Shown: in pieces, positions 27,333 through 53,502 of the stretch
Layout of the letters: every line of letters begins with the position of its first letter
Numbering within the stretch: position 1 is the first letter of the stretch
Sequence record: PZ171035.1
Direction: 5' to 3' (one strand)
Length of the DNA stretch: 64,000 nucleotides
Source of the DNA: a phage
Program-made: the position numbers and the translations under genes
Notes under the pieces: generated by a model
Database searches by the model: none
Told to the model about the DNA's origin: nothing
The model's input: only the letters and a program-made list of their open reading frames with translations

Positions 27333-27408
27333 TACCCGGTAGGCTTAGTGGTAAAGCCCCACTAGTAAACCAACTAGGACGCAGGTTCGAATCCTGTCCG
27401 GGTAGCCA
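27333..27408 (+). tRNA. tRNA (anticodon not resolved)
   Basis: Acceptor TACCCGG/CCGGGTA, D-arm GGCT-TAGTGGTAA-AGCC, T-arm GCAGG-TTCGAAT-CCTGT, discriminator G plus CCA; anticodon arm pairs only with a shifted, non-canonical register. Confidence 0.55.
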
Positions 27409-27413
27409 TTTAT

Positions 27414-27498
27414 GCCCACTTAGCTCAGTGGTAGAGCGCAGGAAAGCTTCGAGAGAACAAGGTGTCTGTGGTCACTGGTTCAAATCCAGTAGTGGGTA
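27414..27498 (+). tRNA. tRNA, 85 nt, probably long-variable-arm type (anticodon not resolved)
   Basis: Acceptor GCCCACT/AGTGGGT, D-arm GCTC-AGTGGTA-GAGC, T-arm ACTGG-TTCAAAT-CCAGT; no CCA encoded; no canonical anticodon stem found by eye. Confidence 0.5.
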
Positions 27499-45793: not shown

Positions 45794-46432
45794 TTAATCG
45801 TTAAGGCTACCAGCAGCAATCTGTGCTTGAGCCAGTTGAGCCAATTCAGCTTCCGTCAACGGAGGCAGTACTTCAATGGAGAACTCACGTGCTTCTGTTG
45901 CACGGATGTCTGGTAAGCCATTCTTACCTTTACGAGTCGTAATGTTGATGAACTTACGCTCTTTAAGAAACTCATAGATACAATACGGAATATGATAACC
46001 ATTGTCGGTTACTTCACCGAACGGAACAAACTTACGTACAGTACCCATATATTCGTTAGCTACGGTGATAATCTCACCCGGCAGGTCTTTCTTCTTAGGG
46101 TCAAGGTTCTGGATACGTACACGAATCAGTCGAGTCTGTTCTGCACGAATCTTCTGACCCAGGGTCATCTTCTTAACACCAGCTTCTTGTTTTTCACCAA
46201 GCGGGTTAACAGTAGCTTCTACTACTGGTTCATCTTTTACTTGTGCAGCTTCAATCTTCTCACGAAGCTTCTCAACGGAAATGTTGTTAGAGAACTTGAT
46301 ATTCATCAACGTTGCACGTTGCTTAAGAACTTCAAGTTCGCTAGGCATTGCAATATCGTTAACGGTATCTTCGTTGCCCTGTACGTTCACTTCTACGTCA
46401 GTGGTCGGTTTATCGTTAATGCTCATGTTCAT
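45794..46432 (-). CDS. structural protein
   Basis: 212-aa ORF immediately downstream of the capsid gene. Confidence 0.4.
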   Translation of the reverse strand: MNMSINDKPTTDVEVNVQGNEDTVNDIAMPSELEVLKQRATLMNIKFSNNISVEKLREKIEAAQVKDEPVVEATVNPLGEKQEAGVKKMTLGQKIRAEQTRLIRVRIQNLDPKKKDLPGEIITVANEYMGTVRKFVPFGEVTDNGYHIPYCIYEFLKERKFINITTRKGKNGLPDIRATEAREFSIEVLPPLTEAELAQLAQAQIAAGSLND

Positions 46433-46462
46433 ATTTCCTGTGGTTCATTTAGTTTTATTAAG

Positions 46463-46490
46463 AGGGGGACATAAGTCCCCCTTGTTTTAT
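46463..46490 (+). terminator. hairpin with T-run on the + strand, inside the – strand operon
   Basis: AGGGGGAC-ATAA-GTCCCCCT followed by TGTTTTATTT on +; A-rich on the – strand side. Confidence 0.4.
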
Positions 46491-46499
46491 TTCGGACTA

Positions 46500-47702
46500 T
46501 TACAGAGGAGCAACAGTCTTAATCAGAGCCAGACGTTCTGGGCGTTTAACCAGGATACCATAGTACCACTTGATAGAACTGAATCCAGTTTCACCATACG
46601 GGTCATTACGGTCAGCAGTTTCTTTACCAGGCATCTTAGTCATGATGGTGAACTTAACAGACTTACCATCAGTCTGGAAGCCAATGGTAGAGAAGGAATC
46701 ATCACCAACTACCAGCATCGGGAATACGTCGTAGTGCTCCTGACCAGATACCATAGAGGTACGATAACCTGGGTTAGTACCAACCTGAGCACCAGCACCT
46801 GCCCAATGCAGCATCTCAGGAACCTGGATAATACGGAACTTATCAATACAACCGATTTCACCATTCATCAGTGTACCAGCATCAGCATAGTGCTGAACTT
46901 CGATGAATGCTTTGTTACCAAACAGGTCCTTCATCGCTTTCAGTTCTGGAACCAGTTCAGAACCAACGTACATTACACGAGTACCACCGAGCACTTTGGT
47001 ATCAGTAAGTTTAGAACCAGTGATGATAGTAGTCTGAGTCGGAGTACGGTTCTCAGTAAGAATCTGGTCAAGACGCATCAGGTTCTTATAAGAAACTACA
47101 GACGGGGTAGCACCTTCACCAGTGATGGTAGCATCGGAGGTAGCAGCACCTGCATACAGTACAGTACCAGCAGCAGCCAACAGGTCTTTCTGGAGAACAG
47201 CTTCAGTCAACTGTACAGCACCGTTCATCAGTTCACGAGACAGGTGTTCTTTCAGTTGATCATCAGAATCAAAGTCCAGAGACTCTTGAGTAAATTCATA
47301 GAAGAAACCGAACTTATGGATGGAACCTTCACGAGACAGACGGGTAAAGCCTACACGGTTAACACGACCACCGTTCTCTGTCAGCAGAGGCAGTTTAGAG
47401 GTGATATTACCAACGTCTCTGGAAGAACCATACAGGTTACCGTTAACGATGGTAGCACCATTAGCATCAATACCCTGGTCGTTGATGTTCTTATAGTCAA
47501 GCAGCGGAACGTACTCATACACCTTAACAGTCTTACCGTAGTTCTTCGGCATGTTAATGGTGTTGGCCAGTGGCATGAAGTACTGGTCTTTACGGGACTG
47601 AATAATAGCTTTCTTCAGCCAGTAATAGGTATTCATCTGGTCGGAACCAGCACCATCAATGCTAGATTTCTGGCCGTCAATTGGGGCGTTATAGTTTAAC
47701 AT
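46500..47702 (-). CDS. major capsid protein
   Basis: 400 aa (N4 major capsid protein is ~401 aa); position between portal and vRNAP block. Confidence 0.6.
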
Positions 47703-49316: not shown

Positions 49317-51587
49317 TTACAGGTTCATGCCAAGAGCCGATGCTGGGTCTTGGCTAGGGTCATAGTATTGAGAACTGAGTGAATAAGCCGGGTCTTGCTG
49401 AGCAGCTAAATCACGTTCTGGTATAGAGTTCCCGTTAGTCAAAGTATTATATCCAACAGCTGCAGATATGTTGGGGGTAGTTTCCCCTTCTTTAATAGGT
49501 GTTGTCAATGCCTTAGTTATCTGAAGGTTCTGGTTTCCTTGAGATTGTGCTTTTTGTTTTTCCATATCACGAGCATGTTTAGTACCAGATTCCTGTTCCA
49601 GATAATCCAGGTCTTTAAGGTCACCAGCAGAAGCAGCCTCTTTAGCCTTAGCCATATTGAGTGTAATCTTGCTTTGTAACTCTTCATTCTCAAGCTGTGC
49701 TTTCTGAATCGCCAATTGTTTAAGCTGTTCTTCCATAGGGTCCGGTTGTGGTTGCCAAGTACGTAACTCATGAGCCAGGTCAGGCATACGTTTAAGTTCT
49801 GCAATTTTAGCTACGAGAGATAACGTAATAGTCTGGTCAACCGTATTACCAAGTGTTTGAACCATGAAGCTCAAGTCCTGAGACTTCTGGTTATCAATTT
49901 CAGCAGTGTTAATATCAACCTCAATATCGAAGTTACCTTTAAGGTCTTCTCGGTTAATTTCTACATACTGCTCGTTAGTAATACGTACTACTTCCTTCTC
50001 AGATAAGAACACAGCATTCATTGCACAAATCTTAGTACCAATGTCTGCCATGCCTTTAGCTAATCGACGAAGGATTGCCATCTCACGTTTGGATGCTGCA
50101 TCAAGTGCACCACGAATACCAGCAGCCACATCTCCATAAGCTGAACCAGTTACACCACCTGAGAATGCTTTAACACCAGTTAGTGATTCTGCTTCCTGGT
50201 TTTGCATCTGGGTCATTACTATTGCCGACTGAGGTAATTCAGGGAACTTATGTTCCATAATGGCCTGACTAGGATTGCCCTGCATTGGGTTGTATTCATA
50301 GTCCTGCCCATCATCGTATCGACGACGGTTCAGTGTATCCAGCATTCCTTTAGGATAACCACGTTGACCATTTGCACTTCGACCCAACAGGTCAATCATC
50401 CCACGCATAGTTGCACCAAGAATTGCTTGGTTATCCCCTAACAGTTCAGCATCAGCTTCACCAAAGAGTTCACGTTTACGTGGCATGTAAGGAACAACTA
50501 CCAAAGGCAACTTACCATCCGGGAATGGGTTCTTCTCCATACGAATAAGGGTAGAACCAATCCAGGTAGCAACAATTGGTTCCAGAGAACCATCATCATT
50601 GATGTCGTAAAATCCCCAGTATTCATAGGCAACAACTTTCTTACGAAGTGCATCCTTAAACTGGAAGTCACTTGGAGTTTTACTTTCATGGTCTGGGTCA
50701 GTCATAGGACTGGAACTTTCCCAGTCAATCTTATCTAAATTGTGATAACGGTCCTTGTTCTTCATGAGGTCTGCTTTACATGTCTCAAAGGAGATAACTG
50801 CATACAGAGCCTTATCCAAATCACCATTACAACTTGGGTCAATGACTACGTTATTAGGGTTAAGCATTTCAACAGTAGGTCTGTTAACCAGTGCTTTCTC
50901 TACTTCTACTTCTGTAACTCCAGTCTGGATTGCATAGGTAGCTTCTCCAGTTTCATTGAAGTAGTTAACAGCTTCCTTAATATCTTCCGGCATTGTTTCA
51001 TCGTACTCACGAGGATTCTCTGCCTGAAGCTGTAAAGCTTGTTGGAGAACATCTGCCTGTTCCTGGTTCTCAATTGGATACAACTGGAAGACTGGTGTTT
51101 CTGTTTTAATCTTAACAGTCTTACGTTCCCAACCAATACGAGCGATACCAGTACCGTCATCTACGACACTGTGTACGTAATCATCTATCAGTTTCACTTT
51201 ATTAAGCTGGGTACGGAATTGGTAGTTAAGAACTAATTCATTCTGACGTGCAGCTAACTCATCTTCATAAGTAACAGGAGTTACTTTAAAGAGCTTATTA
51301 GACGATAGGAATGGTTCAGACAATGGAGCATATCGCCACTCTGCCTGACGGCGAACCAGTCTGGGTTGGACTTGTGAACGTCCCTTAACCTTTGGGGGTT
51401 TAGCCTTACCTTTGACTTCCATCAGGTCATTCCACTCACGAATCTGAGCCATGATTGCATCATGAGCAGGTTTAGCTGATTCCAAATCACCTTTCAGTAA
51501 TTGGATACTTGGTTCCTTCTTCCAGTCCGTTAATTTCTCTGATTGAGCCGGGTCTGGTAAAGGCTTAAAAGTGTCTTGGTGTTCCAT
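49317..51587 (-). CDS. portal protein
   Basis: 756 aa (N4 portal ~763 aa); synteny. Confidence 0.6.
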
Positions 51588-51589
51588 AG

Positions 51590-52096
51590 TTATTCCTGTT
51601 CAAAAAGTTTACGGTCAGCCTGAATCTGTTTACCCAACTCAATTAGTTGGCTGTCACGGAGTCTAACAGTTGCCCGGAGTTCTTCAACCAAACGTCTGCC
51701 TTCTTCAAGACTGTTGTCGAGTCTGGCTGCATGGCTTGCAAGACTTCTGCACTCAAAGGTTCCGGCTTCGGCTTGACGTTTATATACCGATGCTCGTCTT
51801 TCAGACTGTTGCATCCGGCTGTCGTAATCACTGCTAACGCGAGCAAGCTCGCTTGCGTAATTACTCTCAGCCGTCTGCAACCGGGAAGTGAGTAACCCGA
51901 CTTCATAACTATGGTTTCTTTGGAGAGCATTGTATTTGTCCTGTAATTTTTGTGTTGCCTTTTGGTCTTCAATCTTTTGGTCATCCCATTTCTTTTGAAC
52001 AGTAGACTGTCCATTGGAGTTACCCCAAAAGTAAATGGTGGCCCCGAGGACCACCACCAGAAGATAAGGCCAACCCTTAGAGATTAGCATCTTCAT
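51590..52096 (-). CDS. i-spanin (Rz-like)
   Basis: N-terminal [18 protein letters not shown] followed by a long coiled-coil-like region; overlaps endolysin 3' end. Confidence 0.5.
51643..51906 (-). CDS. o-spanin (Rz1-like lipoprotein) embedded in the i-spanin gene in another frame
   Basis: [32 protein letters not shown] lipoprotein signal; short Pro-rich mature region CNSLK...PKPEP. Confidence 0.45.
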   Translation of the reverse strand: MKSGYSLPGCRRLRVITQASLLALAVITTAGCNSLKDEHRYINVKPKPEPLSAEVLQAMQPDSTTVLKKADVWLKNSGQLLDSVTAN

Positions 52097-52697
52097 TACA
52101 TGCCTCCAGTGGCACATTGCCTATTCGGTTAGCTACCCAACCATACGTAAAGTCTGGCATGTTTAATGAGGTGTAGTGGTTCAGTTGTTTGGCATCAAGT
52201 AGCTTAATCATTACCTGACATGCTGCAACTTTGCCTCGTTTTTTCTGTAATGCTTTATATGCATTAACAGTACTTACACCGACTTTACCATCAACCTGTA
52301 TTTTAGGGTAGTCTTTGCCATTGCGAGACATCTGCAACCACTTAGCCGGGCGAGTTACACCAGTGTTAACACCAGCGTCAACCAGCTTATGTGTTACAGC
52401 AGGAGATATATCAGCGAAGGCTACGAAGTTAGGCTTAAGAACGTAGTCATCAATGTATATCTCAGCAGCCATCTCTTTGGATAAACCTTTCATAGAACCA
52501 TCCCAACCATACTCAGTAGCCAAAACTTCTTTATGAGATTTAGCTACCGATTGGGTAATACCATGATTGGTTTCGCCACCTGGGTCACGGGGATTGTTTA
52601 CATAACCCCCTTCCATATAGAACACTGCCCCCAGGATAGCAGCGATAACCCCTCCCACTGCACCACCTTTCGCAGCAAGTTTCTGTTTAGCTTTCAT
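52077..52697 (-). CDS. N-acetylmuramidase endolysin (GH108 plus peptidoglycan-binding domain), SAR-type N-terminus
   Basis: MEGGYVNNPRDPGGETNHGIT (GH108 signature); N-terminal Gly/Ala-rich weakly hydrophobic segment; 206 aa. Confidence 0.7.
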   Translation of the reverse strand: MKAKQKLAAKGGAVGGVIAAILGAVFYMEGGYVNNPRDPGGETNHGITQSVAKSHKEVLATEYGWDGSMKGLSKEMAAEIYIDDYVLKPNFVAFADISPAVTHKLVDAGVNTGVTRPAKWLQMSRNGKDYPKIQVDGKVGVSTVNAYKALQKKRGKVAACQVMIKLLDAKQLNHYTSLNMPDFTYGWVANRIGNVPLEACNEDANL

Positions 52698-52947
52698 GTG
52701 AATCTTCCTTTGGTCGGAATCGTACCAATCTGCCTACGATGTTTAAGGCAAACAGTGCAATTGCAATATTGGAACCATGGGGAATATCTTCCAGGATGTG
52801 ACGGGGTAATCCTGTCAGCATTGGTTGGATAATATCTATAGCAGAAAACAAAATTAAACCTAATGTACTAATCTGAACGGATGCCCACTTCCAGCATCTT
52901 TTCCAGTTAGGTACTAACTCTACTTTTCTTTTTAGCCTGCGAACCAT
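52687..52947 (-). CDS. holin-like membrane protein
   Basis: Two hydrophobic segments (ISTLGLILFSAIDII, IAIALFALNIVGRLV); start uncertain (ORF track extends to 53013). Confidence 0.4.
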   Translation of the reverse strand: MVRRLKRKVELVPNWKRCWKWASVQISTLGLILFSAIDIIQPMLTGLPRHILEDIPHGSNIAIALFALNIVGRLVRFRPKEDSHES

Positions 52948-53261
52948 GCGAATATCTCCCGTCTTGCAGCAGCTAATACACCAATAATTGCACCTGTCCC
53001 AGCCCACACCCACTTACCGAAAATTCCAGCACCAACAACTTTATGCTTAATGGTGATGAACTCTTCAATAGTAGGTTCATTCTTAGCTAAGCTATCCTCC
53101 ACATTTTTTAGTCTATTACCTATGTCATTGATTGAATCCCGTAGTTCTGACAGAGTCTCCTCCAGTTTCTCACGGTCTTGTCTGTCTCTTGTCTGGTTCT
53201 CAAACAGAGTCTTCAATCGTTCCTCCAGTCTGACTAGGAGCAGTTCACCCGATTCATTCAT
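52932..53261 (-). CDS. lysis-cassette membrane protein (coiled coil plus C-terminal TM)
   Basis: 109 aa; C-terminal GAGIFGKWVWAGTGAIIGVLAA. Confidence 0.35.
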   Translation of the reverse strand: MNESGELLLVRLEERLKTLFENQTRDRQDREKLEETLSELRDSINDIGNRLKNVEDSLAKNEPTIEEFITIKHKVVGAGIFGKWVWAGTGAIIGVLAAARREIFAWFAG

Positions 53262-53469
53262 AATATTACCGTAGTTGTGTAGTTAGAATCCCCAATAGGG
53301 TCATATCATAAGATGACTCTTAGATAATACTTAGTAAGATGAGGTACATCCAGACATAGTGTCTGATATCAGCTCATGGTGGGTGGTATTCAGTTGGGTA
53401 TGTTTAATATATCCGAGTAAGTAATTACCCTAACAGCAGTATCAATTAGGGTAATGCAAACAGTAAACT

Positions 53470-53497
53470 CTATATAAGAAAAGGCCCGTTCGGGCCT
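53470..53497 (-). terminator. rho-independent terminator after tailspike 1
   Basis: AGGCCCG/CGGGCCT hairpin followed on the – strand by TTTTCTTATATA. Confidence 0.55.
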
Positions 53498-53502
53498 TTG
53501 TT

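Follow-up and report, generated by a model that had tools for sequence, protein, structure and literature searches.

How does an N4-like phage time the opening of its host, and which of a handful of small, overlapping genes carries out each step? The phage DNA analyzed here (sequence record PZ171035.1, a stretch of 64,000 nucleotides hereafter called the window) raises this question in compact form, with five tightly overlapping genes on the minus strand between positions 51590 and 53261. We sought to determine whether these genes form a complete lysis system, which membrane protein makes the hole, how the endolysin is held in check, and whether a reading frame nested within the i-spanin gene is genuine.

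Gene order and genome context

The locus is very probably a complete, late, multi-gene lysis cassette of the N4-like (Gamaleyavirus) type, arranged gp63-gp62-gp61-gp60(gp60a) on the minus strand directly upstream of the portal gene. All five open reading frames that a first-pass annotation had placed here are present on that strand. What can be read directly from the DNA and its relatives is the anatomy of the genes, their domains, sequence signals and orthology, and the conservation of both spanin frames; the features are as follows.

53480..53499, minus strand: hairpin resembling an intrinsic terminator, immediately past the upstream tail-fibre gene and separating it from the lysis cassette
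53262..53390, minus strand: conserved leader (~125 nt) upstream of gp63, kept among Gamaleyavirus loci even where sequence farther upstream diverges
52932-53261, minus strand: gp63-like predicted pinholin, 109 aa (ORF, phrog_5211 and N4 gp63 orthology)
52687-52947, minus strand: gp62-like protein (DUF7940) with two transmembrane domains (TMDs), 86 aa, putative holin-like lysis regulator (Pfam, PHROGs and N4 gp62 orthology)
52077-52697, minus strand: gp61-like predicted SAR endolysin, 206 aa, GH108 then PG_binding_3 (Pfam and N4 gp61 orthology)
51590-52096, minus strand: gp60-like i-spanin, 168 aa (phrog_6197 and N4 gp60 orthology)
51643-51930, minus strand: gp60a-like o-spanin, 95 aa, in the +1 frame inside the i-spanin gene (lipobox, N4 gp60a orthology and dual-frame conservation)

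Judged by its sequence, the window is the genome of a Gamaleyavirus (N4-like, Schitoviridae), an E. coli phage. Its DNA is ~95% identical to that of St11Ph5, ECBP1 and Bp4, in which the lysis genes are already annotated, and this level of identity extends to 50-plus Gamaleyavirus genomes that share the gene order tail fibre-gp63-gp62-gp61-gp60/60.1-portal. The order in N4 is identical, and of the 88 matching phage records most already have the system annotated. The overlaps between the gp63-like and gp62-like genes, the gp62-like and endolysin genes, and the endolysin and i-spanin genes measure 16, 11 and 20 nt, respectively, and the ATG of the portal gene lies 2 nt from the i-spanin stop. PHROG families matched across the cassette are holin, endolysin and Rz-like spanin, and identities to N4 gp63, gp62, gp61, gp60 and gp60a are 67, 63, 70, 55 and 63%. 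An exact-sequence look-up in a public collection of 15 billion proteins matched only the gp62-like protein.

The leader presumably holds a late promoter or translation signals, and this role is putative. A simple sigma-70 scan of the 240-nt leader upstream of gp63 found no sigma-70 promoter on the minus strand.

The cassette is real but ordinary: dozens of relatives already have it annotated, and experiments have dissected its N4 counterpart. Specifically, experiments on N4 identify gp63 as the pinholin, gp62 as a lysis regulator, gp61 as a SAR endolysin and gp60/gp60a as a two-component spanin, and N4 gp60-63 alone suffice for rapid lysis (Awuah et al., bioRxiv 10.1101/2025.11.12.688109). As a textbook pinholin, SAR-endolysin and embedded-spanin module, the cassette has little significance beyond its correct annotation.

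A predicted SAR endolysin of the GH108 family

The proposal that the cassette encodes a GH108 endolysin with a SAR-type, Gly/Ala-rich N-terminus holds up on closer inspection. Pfam GH108 (PF05838) matches residues 24-113 with 72.2 bits (cut-off 21.2), and Pfam PG_binding_3 (PF09374) matches with 29.7 bits (cut-off 24.6) despite the loss of five residues from that domain. In addition to its 70% identity to N4 gp61, the protein is 98.5% identical to St11Ph5 gp61, and its best PDB relative is 6v3z (E 6.7e-24). A search of NCBIfam with the cassette returned only a sub-threshold match of the endolysin to NF040573, the equivalog for holin-associated N-acetylmuramidases (53.8 bits versus a cut-off of 240). 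By this score, the protein is a related GH108 enzyme and not a member of that equivalog.

Two adjoining features define the N-terminus.

52614..52667, minus strand: SAR segment, endolysin residues 11-28, GGAVGGVIAAILGAVFYM, assigned from Gly/Ala composition and flanking charges
52602..52613, minus strand: EGGY motif (residues 29-32), assigned by alignment and contiguous with the SAR segment; Glu29 is its presumed catalytic residue

The sequence reads MKAKQKLAAK-GGAVGGVIAAILGAVFYM-EGGY, in which an uncharged run of 18 residues, 50% Gly/Ala, is preceded by K2, K4, K6 and K10 and followed by Glu29, which, going by the Pfam description of the GH108 family, we take to be the catalytic residue. N4 gp61 and PDB 6v3z have an EGGY that aligns with this motif, and those relatives that carry EGGE instead retain the Glu. 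The overall pattern of a Lys flank, a Gly/Ala-rich uncharged run and EGGY is conserved across endolysins of Schitoviridae subfamilies.

The segment reaches a Kyte-Doolittle 19-residue maximum of 1.79. By Hessa-type and Kyte-Doolittle sums, taken over 17-residue windows, the SAR helix does not come out as less hydrophobic than the remaining TMDs of the cassette, and the assignment as SAR is therefore based on Gly/Ala composition, flanking charges and orthology. Single-sequence AlphaFold2 yielded an unusable model of the protein (mean pLDDT 35). These data support the designation of the protein as a predicted SAR endolysin and GH108 N-acetylmuramidase.

The experimental record for the N4 orthologue agrees with this designation. 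N4 gp61 has muramidase activity, is uncleaved, and stays tethered and inactive until depolarisation, with slow lysis occurring independently of a holin; moreover, it works with a pinholin and complements R21 (Awuah et al., bioRxiv 10.1101/2025.11.12.688109). The same preprint cites Stojkovic and Rothman-Denes (2007) for the membrane association of N4 gp61. Mutations that cause rapid lysis in N4 fall in the SAR helix of gp61 and in the Receiver region of gp63 (bioRxiv 10.1101/2025.11.12.688109). Among Gamaleyavirus phages, the activity of the UE-M6 endolysin (UE-lysin) has been shown, if crudely (PMC12661215).

Might the N-terminus instead be an ordinary cleavable Sec signal peptide, such that the enzyme is secreted in active form with no regulation by tethering? 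Its basic n-region followed by a hydrophobic h-region does resemble a signal peptide, and when read by eye, small residues near the end of the segment (L-G-A|V here and V-F-A|V in N4) could provide a weak signal-peptidase site. However, the Gly/Ala-rich run of 18 residues is what one expects of a SAR domain, and it leads straight into the catalytic EGGY. The reported membrane association and pinholin compatibility of N4 gp61 also argue against cleavage, as does the observation that mutations introducing charge into its helix hasten lysis and do not block export (bioRxiv 10.1101/2025.11.12.688109). We therefore regard a cleavable signal peptide as very improbable, and favor a SAR domain.

The gp63-like protein as the probable hole-former

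Upstream of the endolysin gene, the first-pass annotation had noted two small, overlapping, holin-like membrane proteins. Both are present, but their description as equivalent holin-like genes does not stand, since N4 orthology points to a gp63-like pinholin and a gp62-like regulator.

The gp63-like protein has a long cytoplasmic helical N-domain, a conserved 'Receiver' stretch (PTIEEFITIKHK) and a single Gly-rich C-terminal TMD at approximately residues 75-98 (VVGAGIFGKWVWAGTGAIIGVLAA). It matches phrog_5211 (7.6e-50), is 97% identical to St11Ph5 gp63, and its 67% identity to N4 gp63 rises to near-identity from PTIEEFITIKHK through the C-terminus. The sites T65 and T71 of N4 gp63, linked to rapid lysis, are conserved in the window protein as T64 and T70. 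Because K/H/K precede the TMD and RR follow it, the positive-inside rule leaves the orientation of this helix ambiguous, an ambiguity also noted by the N4 authors (Awuah et al., bioRxiv 10.1101/2025.11.12.688109).

S21-type (class II) pinholins are recognized by two TMDs, of which TMD1 is a SAR domain; the gp63-like protein has one hydrophobic segment, located at its C-terminus. Judged by its orthology to N4 gp63, it should act as a pinholin, yet it falls outside the S21 family. N4 gp63 itself forms holes that are small and lethal, can complement S21 though not lambda S105, and sets the timing of lysis (bioRxiv 10.1101/2025.11.12.688109).

Conservation identifies ATG1 as the real start of the gp63-like gene. 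An internal TTG at codon 16 has a strong SD ahead of it and was picked by the gene caller on metagenome scaffold L009. Most relatives lack a start codon at that position, which is why we rejected TTG16 as the principal start. It is further disfavored by the upstream LARLEER motif, which is conserved at the protein level with synonymous changes, and thus the SD-like GGAGGA simply reflects the Glu-Glu codons of this motif.

The gp62-like protein matches Pfam DUF7940 (54.2 bits, cut-off 27) and phrog_1356 'holin' (1.9e-32), and is 63% identical to N4 gp62. Its two hydrophobic segments, at approximately residues 21-37 and 61-77, resemble the helices at 22-37 and 61-71 that DeepTMHMM predicts for the UE-M6 homologue (PMC12661215). 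The exact protein belongs to a 262-member cluster, some members of which are named 'holin'. A strong SD (GGGAG) precedes its ATG at 52947.

The gp62-like reading frame is open farther upstream to a GTG at 53013, and a long isoform of 108 aa starting there is possible. The 22-codon extension is open in 6/6 phages, and its amino-acid sequence is poorly conserved. Its start codon arises as a side effect of the conserved Gly-Lys-Trp codons in gp63, and the GTG here lacks an SD; we retain the isoform as no more than a possibility. The alternative starts of the two genes are both weak codons: a long gp62 isoform would begin at this GTG, and a short gp63 isoform at TTG16, which follows a strong GGAGGA.

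Which of the two proteins makes the hole? According to the classical holin-endolysin scheme, the gp62-like protein would be a true class II holin, and the gp63-like protein would be an accessory protein, an antiholin, or unrelated to lysis. The 'holin' labels given to gp62 homologues in GenBank and PHROG accord with this scheme. Furthermore, the UE-M6 endolysin and its 'holin', a gp62 homologue, each inhibit growth when expressed, and the latter enhances endolysin activity (PMC12661215). Likewise, N4 gp62 forms lethal holes slowly and can be triggered to do so. However, deletion of N4 gp62 leaves plasmid-driven lysis unchanged, and the gene is non-essential in the phage, whereas N4 gp63 complements the S21 pinholin and its deletion is recovered only with suppressor mutations in the SAR domain of gp61 (bioRxiv 10.1101/2025.11.12.688109). 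With the TMD and Receiver region of gp63 nearly identical between the window and N4, we judge the classical scheme improbable. The main hole-former is probably the gp63-like protein and not the protein labelled "holin" in GenBank; by orthology to N4, the latter would be a non-essential lysis regulator with slow holin activity.

These assignments have a practical consequence, in that the gp63-like gene should be annotated as a pinholin and the gp62-like 'holin' as a lysis regulator. In many records gp63 homologues are listed as 'hypothetical' or are mislabelled as tape-measure or tail-needle proteins.

An o-spanin gene nested in the i-spanin gene

The i-spanin has an N-terminal TMD at approximately residues 8-24 (Kyte-Doolittle 1.61), a periplasmic domain that is helical and charged, and one periplasmic Cys, Cys114. 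Its reading frame is open upstream to 52117 (175 aa). The match to phrog_6197 'Rz-like spanin' (1.1e-77) begins at residue 8 of this longer frame, which corresponds to ATG 52096, and an SD (GGAGG) lies upstream of the gene. Identity to the N4 orthologues is 55% for the i-spanin (gp60) and 63% for the o-spanin (gp60a).

The nested o-spanin gene, annotated as gp60.1 in St11Ph5, encodes the lipobox TTAG-C with a predicted lipidated Cys at codon 51811-51813, followed by a Pro-rich KPKPEP stretch in a mature form of 56 aa. Two start codons are available, and the choice between ATG 51930 and ATG 51906 (51643-51906, 87 aa) is uncertain. In the 87-aa form, a PROSITE-type lipobox pattern ends at Cys32, and the next residue is Asn, not Asp. 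Use of the conserved upstream ATG would place the Cys at position 40, behind a signal peptide of 39 residues; in lipoproteins the Cys usually falls at positions 15-35. The upstream ATG is kept in ECBP1, L012 and Klebsiella phages, in which the Met of MKSG, the downstream start, is lost.

Is this frame a gene, or a non-coding by-product of the i-spanin sequence? No model in Pfam, PHROGs or NCBIfam matches the nested frame, and synonymous-codon shuffles of the i-spanin gene produce an alternative-frame ORF of at least 87 aa in 22% of cases, which is what a by-product would predict. Length alone is therefore not evidence, and we used a comparative dual-frame test instead; a lipoprotein-like ORF arises in only 0.7% of shuffles. 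In every one of 17 distinct relatives (17/17), the two spanin frames stay open and the third is closed (17/17). The three codon positions contribute variable columns about equally (19/20/24), none of them being relaxed, and the nested frame retains a mean amino-acid identity of 84%.

Across 22 loci the mature product stays at 56 aa, and this length and the lipobox are kept from E. coli phages to Achromobacter phage JWAlpha. Phages of Erwinia, Stenotrophomonas and Pseudomonas likewise have a nested lipobox, with a mature product of 54-59 aa. Moreover, N4 gp60 and gp60a together complement lambda RzRz1 (bioRxiv 10.1101/2025.11.12.688109). These findings leave almost no room for a non-coding by-product. 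By the comparative evidence the nested o-spanin gene is real, as the initial proposal of a lipoprotein o-spanin in another frame of the i-spanin gene had held. Embedded o-spanins are often missed by gene callers, and this one deserves annotation.

The mature o-spanin is devoid of Cys, such that the sole periplasmic Cys of the pair resides in the i-spanin. Cys114 is conserved in phage N4 and in Klebsiella, Erwinia and Pseudomonas phages, and is absent in Achromobacter and Stenotrophomonas phages. Its position fits a survey of spanin pairs with a lone Cys, in which this residue lies nearer the contact site between i-spanin and o-spanin than the outer membrane (Kongari et al. 2018, PMC6139136).

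Proposed lysis mechanism

Each functional step proposed here is transferred from N4, whose proteins are 55-70% identical to those of the window. After export by Sec, the endolysin would remain attached to the inner membrane through its Gly/Ala-rich N-terminal helix, a weak anchor. That the anchor is weak is suggested by composition and orthology, as simple scales do not rank this helix lower. The tethered enzyme would be inactive, with catalytic Glu29 positioned at the membrane end of the helix. Meanwhile, the gp63-like protein would build up in the inner membrane and trigger on schedule; the small holes that it makes would dissipate the membrane potential. Upon depolarisation, the SAR helix would leave the bilayer and the released muramidase could degrade peptidoglycan around the whole cell.

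The i-spanin in the inner membrane and the lipoprotein o-spanin in the outer membrane would be joined by their C-termini across the periplasm, and after loss of the wall the pair would fuse or disrupt the outer membrane. The two-helix gp62-like protein may serve as an accessory, slower, holin-like regulator of timing.

Comparison with known lysis systems

The N4 cassette resembles that of the window in its five genes, their order and strand, and their location, with tail genes on one side and the portal gene on the other. Also common to both are a SAR helix followed by EGGY, a gp63 with C-terminal TMD and Receiver, a gp62 with two TMDs and an embedded o-spanin whose mature length is 56 aa. The two phages differ in genus, N4 being an Enquatrovirus and the window a Gamaleyavirus. 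The alternative starts are weaker in the window, with TTG16 in place of N4 ATG17 in gp63 and GTG in place of ATG for long gp62. Compared with N4 gp61, the window endolysin has an N-terminal flank four residues longer and a 5-residue deletion in its wall-binding domain. Gamaleyavirus relatives are closer still, at 94-99% amino-acid identity (St11Ph5 gp63-gp60.1, ECBP1, Bp4, pSb-1 and UE-M6 'UE-holin'/'UE-lysin'; PMC12661215). They have identical architecture and overlaps, and their genes are annotated as holin, N-acetylmuramidase and Rz/Rz1 spanins.

The pinholin-SAR paradigm is represented by phage 21, with S21 and the SAR endolysin R21, and by P1 Lyz. The window cassette would share its functional logic, in which a tethered endolysin is freed by depolarisation through small holes. 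There is, however, no sequence relationship, and the window endolysin is of the GH108 family whereas those of phage 21 and P1 are of the T4-lysozyme type. S21 has two TMDs, with TMD1 a SAR domain, in contrast to the single C-terminal TMD and long cytoplasmic domain of the predicted window pinholin.

Lambda Rz/Rz1 likewise carries its o-spanin lipoprotein gene entirely within the i-spanin gene, in the +1 frame (PMC6139136). Both pairs also have a type II i-spanin, a Pro-rich o-spanin and at least one periplasmic Cys. The window o-spanin spans 0.33-0.89 of the i-spanin length, near the typical 0.4-0.5 to 0.9-1.0 (PMC6139136). The two pairs belong to different spanin sequence families, and lambda has three periplasmic Cys in total, whereas the window has one, in the i-spanin. 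Among known structures, PDB 6v3z (Sen1395), 6v40 and 2ikb likewise combine an EGGY-bearing GH108 catalytic domain with PG_binding_3 at the C-terminus. The match to 6v3z starts at window residue 24, at the end of the hydrophobic segment, and does not cover the SAR-type N-terminus.

A five-residue deletion peculiar to the window

Comparison with relatives revealed one departure from the common pattern.

52329..52334, minus strand: junction of a 15-nt in-frame deletion in the endolysin gene, between 52331 and 52332

Where relatives read WLQ(L/M/Q/E)SLNEMSR, the window reads WLQMSR. The deletion removes five residues, including part of the conserved WLQxSLN stretch, from the PG_binding_3 wall-binding domain, such that the endolysin has 206 aa instead of the 211 aa found in all relatives. 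It is unique to the window among 56 close phage records and 22 compared loci. The junction has no match in IMG/VR, and the exact 206-aa protein is absent from the 15-billion-protein collection. By these comparisons, the deletion is the only feature peculiar to the window genome.

This rarity and the loss of conserved residues could indicate that the endolysin gene is damaged, either because the deletion cripples the wall-binding domain or because it is a sequencing or assembly error. Against this reading, the deletion preserves the frame and spares the catalytic domain, and PG_binding_3 still scores above the Pfam cut-off (29.7 bits, compared with 31.9 for St11Ph5 and 36.7 for N4). N4-type proteins have about five residues more than the Pfam profile at this site, and thus the deletion brings the length nearer to the family consensus. 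In the closest relative, L009, an imperfect direct repeat of 7 nt (ATGTCTC...ATGTCCC) flanks the 15 nt lost in the window, which would explain the deletion as natural replication slippage. We consider a damaged gene unlikely and prefer slippage, although full endolysin activity is not guaranteed for a 5-residue deletion found in no relative.

It is similarly doubtful that the lysis timing or wall targeting of this isolate differs from that of its relatives, whether through the slippage-made deletion or the weak alternative starts. If it does, the cassette would be a natural variant informative on the tuning of N4-type lysis and lysis inhibition. Regardless, those who use the window endolysin should be aware of the unique 5-residue deletion in its wall-binding domain.

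Gene organization and relatives of the lysis cassette

ORF calling in the window finds five genes arranged head to tail on the minus strand at 51590-53261, and the first-pass annotation was accurate in both its coordinates and its description of a lysis cassette there. The two small, overlapping membrane proteins that it placed upstream correspond to the gp63-like and gp62-like ORFs (named, like the others, after phage N4 orthologues), both of which carry hydrophobic segments.

Features of the lysis cassette and its surroundings
53480-53499, terminator-like hairpin after the 636-aa tail-fibre gene, upstream of the cassette
52932-53261, minus strand, gp63-like protein, 109 aa
52687-52947, minus strand, gp62-like protein, 86 aa; preceded by a strong GGGAG Shine-Dalgarno; reading frame continues open upstream as far as a GTG at 53013
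52077-52697, minus strand, endolysin (gp61), 206 aa
51590-52096, minus strand, i-spanin (gp60), 168 aa; GGAGG Shine-Dalgarno
51643-51930 or 51643-51906, minus strand, nested o-spanin (gp60a), 95 or 87 aa; +1 frame, entirely within the i-spanin gene
49317-51587, portal gene, 756 aa; ATG 2 nt past the i-spanin stop

Adjacent cassette genes overlap by 16, 11 and 20 nt, and gp63 is preceded by a ~125-nt leader that is kept across the genus. Between the tail-fibre terminator and gp63, the intergenic DNA also carries a perfect 10-bp inverted repeat at 53424-53455 (ATTACCCTAA / TTAGGGTAAT, 12-nt spacer), common to phage ECBP1 and the metagenome scaffold L009, not to St11Ph5.

This lysis system is already known, and close relatives already have it annotated. 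More than 50 Gamaleyavirus phages (Schitoviridae, N4-like) of Escherichia and Shigella match the cassette region at 94-95.5% DNA identity, among them St11Ph5, ECBP1, Bp4, pSb-1, PD205 and UE-M6; the closest relative found is L009 (97.25% DNA identity). In St11Ph5, whose proteins share 94-99% amino-acid identity with those of the window, the five genes sit between tail-fibre gp63.1 and portal gp59 and are annotated as hypothetical (gp63), putative holin (gp62), N-acetylmuramidase (gp61) and Rz/Rz1 spanins (gp60.2 and gp60.1); the picture in ShWW44 is no different. Phage N4 has the identical gene order, gp63-gp62-gp61-gp60 adjoining portal gp59, with amino-acid identities to the window of 67% (gp63), 63% (gp62), 70% (gp61), 55% (gp60) and 63% (gp60a). 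Among GenBank relatives, gp63 homologues go under several inconsistent labels (hypothetical protein, 'tail length tape-measure protein', 'tail needle protein'), and many records lack the embedded o-spanin.

Expected mechanism of lysis

N4 gp60 through gp63 suffice for rapid lysis (Awuah et al., bioRxiv 10.1101/2025.11.12.688109). In the same study, gp61 works with a pinholin and gives slow release alone, like a signal-arrest-release (SAR) endolysin; gp63 complements the phage 21 pinholin, not lambda S105, and its killing is irreversible; gp62, which is not essential, acts as a slow holin that can be triggered and is therefore termed a 'lysis regulator'; and the function of lambda RzRz1 can be supplied by gp60/gp60a. 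Mutations that give rapid lysis map to the SAR helix of gp61 and to the Receiver region, a conserved stretch of gp63.

Given this orthology, the window cassette should work as in N4. The endolysin would be inserted by Sec and held tethered until gp63 pinholes depolarise the membrane, whereupon the SAR helix would free the muramidase and the spanin complex would remove the outer membrane, with timing tuned by gp62. In UE-M6, of the same genus, expression of the endolysin and gp62 homologue inhibits growth, and with EDTA these proteins act on cells from outside (PMC12661215).

The gp63-like and gp62-like membrane proteins

The gp62-like protein belongs to DUF7940 (Pfam, 54.2 bits, cut-off 27) and to phrog_1356 'holin', and has two hydrophobic segments; for the UE-M6 homologue (94% identical), DeepTMHMM places TM helices at 22-37 and 61-71 (PMC12661215). 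In the gp63-like protein, a long, charged, helical N-domain is followed by a single C-terminal TMD rich in Gly; between PTIEEFITIKHK and its C-terminus the protein barely differs from N4 gp63. This part holds the equivalents of T65 and T71, to which N4 rapid-lysis mutations map (bioRxiv 10.1101/2025.11.12.688109). By comparison with N4, the lysis-timing pinholin is probably the gp63-like protein and not the gp62-like 'holin'; this is the main refinement to the first-pass interpretation, which is otherwise supported.

Both genes offer alternative starts. TTG codon 16 of gp63 (window 53216), behind GGAGGA (GGAGGAACGA), matches the N4 alternative start Met17, and a gene caller took this internal TTG as the start in L009 (2732-3016), giving a 94-aa product. 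We reject it in favor of ATG1, because the TTG is not kept across the family, a start codon being absent from this position in most relatives, and the preceding residues are conserved as protein; the Shine-Dalgarno-like stretch is just Glu-Glu codons. For gp62, a 22-codon in-frame extension (52948-53013, minus strand) is open in all six phages compared, with its amino-acid sequence poorly kept. It begins directly after a TAA arising from gp63 GGT-AAR-TGG codons, with GTG in the window and ATG in N4, Klebsiella, Achromobacter and Erwinia phages. The extension start is a by-product of the gp63 Gly-Lys-Trp codons; a 108-aa long gp62 isoform is possible, and amino-acid conservation lends it no support.

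The protein cluster of the gp62-like protein includes WP_161985582.1, 'DUF7940 domain-containing protein [Enterococcus faecium]', which shares at least 90% identity with window gp62 and is probably phage contamination of the assembly.

A predicted SAR-type endolysin with a 15-nt deletion

The endolysin matches Glyco_hydro_108 (72.2 bits, cut-off 21.2) and PG_binding_3 (29.7 bits, cut-off 24.6) in Pfam and the endolysin family in PHROGs, and among solved structures it comes closest to the GH108 proteins 6v3z (E 6.7e-24) and 6v40 (E 3.1e-17). Its N-terminus, MKAKQKLAAK-GGAVGGVIAAILGAVFYM-EGGY, has four lysines and then an 18-residue uncharged run, 50% Gly/Ala, followed directly by the EGGY motif of the GH108 family, in which Glu29 is presumably catalytic. 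Endolysins of N4, Klebsiella, Erwinia and Achromobacter phages share this design, and the Stenotrophomonas phage C121 homologue is already recorded as 'SAR endolysin N-acetylmuramidase'. Simple hydrophobicity sums did not rank the SAR helix weaker than other cassette TMDs, so the basis for the SAR assignment is the composition of the segment, the charges that flank it and orthology. Together with the Pfam match, these features support the earlier proposal of a SAR-type GH108 endolysin with a Gly/Ala-rich N-terminus.

The protein is 206 aa long versus 211 in relatives, owing to a 15-nt in-frame deletion at 52329-52334 (minus strand) that removes (L/M)SLNE and leaves WLQMSR where relatives have WLQ(L/M/Q/E)SLNEMSR. 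The aligned region is five residues longer in 56/56 close phage records. The deletion is absent from every relative examined, its junction was not found in IMG/VR, and the exact 206-aa endolysin was not found in a large protein collection. At this site L009 reads CAG-ATGTCTC-TTAATGAA-ATGTCCC, an imperfect 7-nt direct repeat of which one copy is left in the window, which suggests that the deletion arose by replication slippage. The residues are lost from the beginning of PG_binding_3, a domain that even so scores above its cut-off (29.7 bits versus 31.9 in St11Ph5). A single-sequence AlphaFold model of the endolysin was unusable (pLDDT 35).

The nested spanin pair

The i-spanin matches phrog_6197 'Rz-like spanin' (1.1e-77), with the alignment starting at the residue of ATG 52096. 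The nested ORF had no match among Pfam, PHROGs and NCBIfam models. Its sequence is nevertheless typical of a lipoprotein, with a PROSITE-type lipobox, a lipidated Cys followed by Asn, a KPKPEP stretch rich in Pro and a mature form of 56 residues, the mature length reported for N4 gp60a (bioRxiv 10.1101/2025.11.12.688109). Length alone is not significant, since 22% of synonymous shuffles of the i-spanin gene give an alternative-frame ORF of at least 87 aa; 0.7% are also lipoprotein-like.

A +1-frame lipobox ORF occupies the equivalent place in E. coli, Klebsiella, Achromobacter, Erwinia, Stenotrophomonas and Pseudomonas phages, and 22 loci encode a mature form of 56 aa. Across the 168-nt mature region, both coding frames run without stops in 17/17 distinct sequences (mean amino-acid identity 0.84 each), the third has stops in all 17, and variable columns spread evenly over codon positions (19/20/24), a signature of dual coding. 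This comparative sequence evidence for a nested o-spanin gene is decisive, and bears out the first-pass claim of a lipoprotein o-spanin in another frame of the i-spanin gene.

The upstream ATG 51930, preceded by an AGGA Shine-Dalgarno, is the conserved start, because ECBP1, the relative L012 and Klebsiella phages lack the downstream Met; the mature protein is identical from either start. The o-spanin covers 0.33-0.89 of the i-spanin length, near the typical embedded layout. The sole periplasmic Cys of the pair, i-spanin C114, fits the pattern of a spanin survey in which the Cys of lone-Cys pairs lies nearer the i-/o-spanin contact site than the outer membrane (PMC6139136).

Other features of the window

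A 472-aa antisense ORF at 46281-47699 (plus strand) runs opposite the major capsid gene at 46500-47702 (minus strand), its codons in register with those of the gene. The capsid gene has one TTA/CTA/TCA codon in 400 (0.2%) versus 2.8% in other genes, and this scarcity leaves the antisense frame open. We therefore reject the ORF, whose translation is featureless, as a codon-bias artefact.

Two adjacent tRNA-like genes lie at 27333-27405 and 27414-27498 (plus strand; Rfam, 39.3 and 53.9 bits). ARAGORN calls the first only, with no assigned anticodon; in the predicted fold of this gene the anticodon loop is 6 nt long. The second is 85 nt long and carries an insert of 24 nt in the region of the anticodon arm. 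Relatives carry the annotation 'tRNA-Ile | tRNA-OTHER' at the same variable spot.
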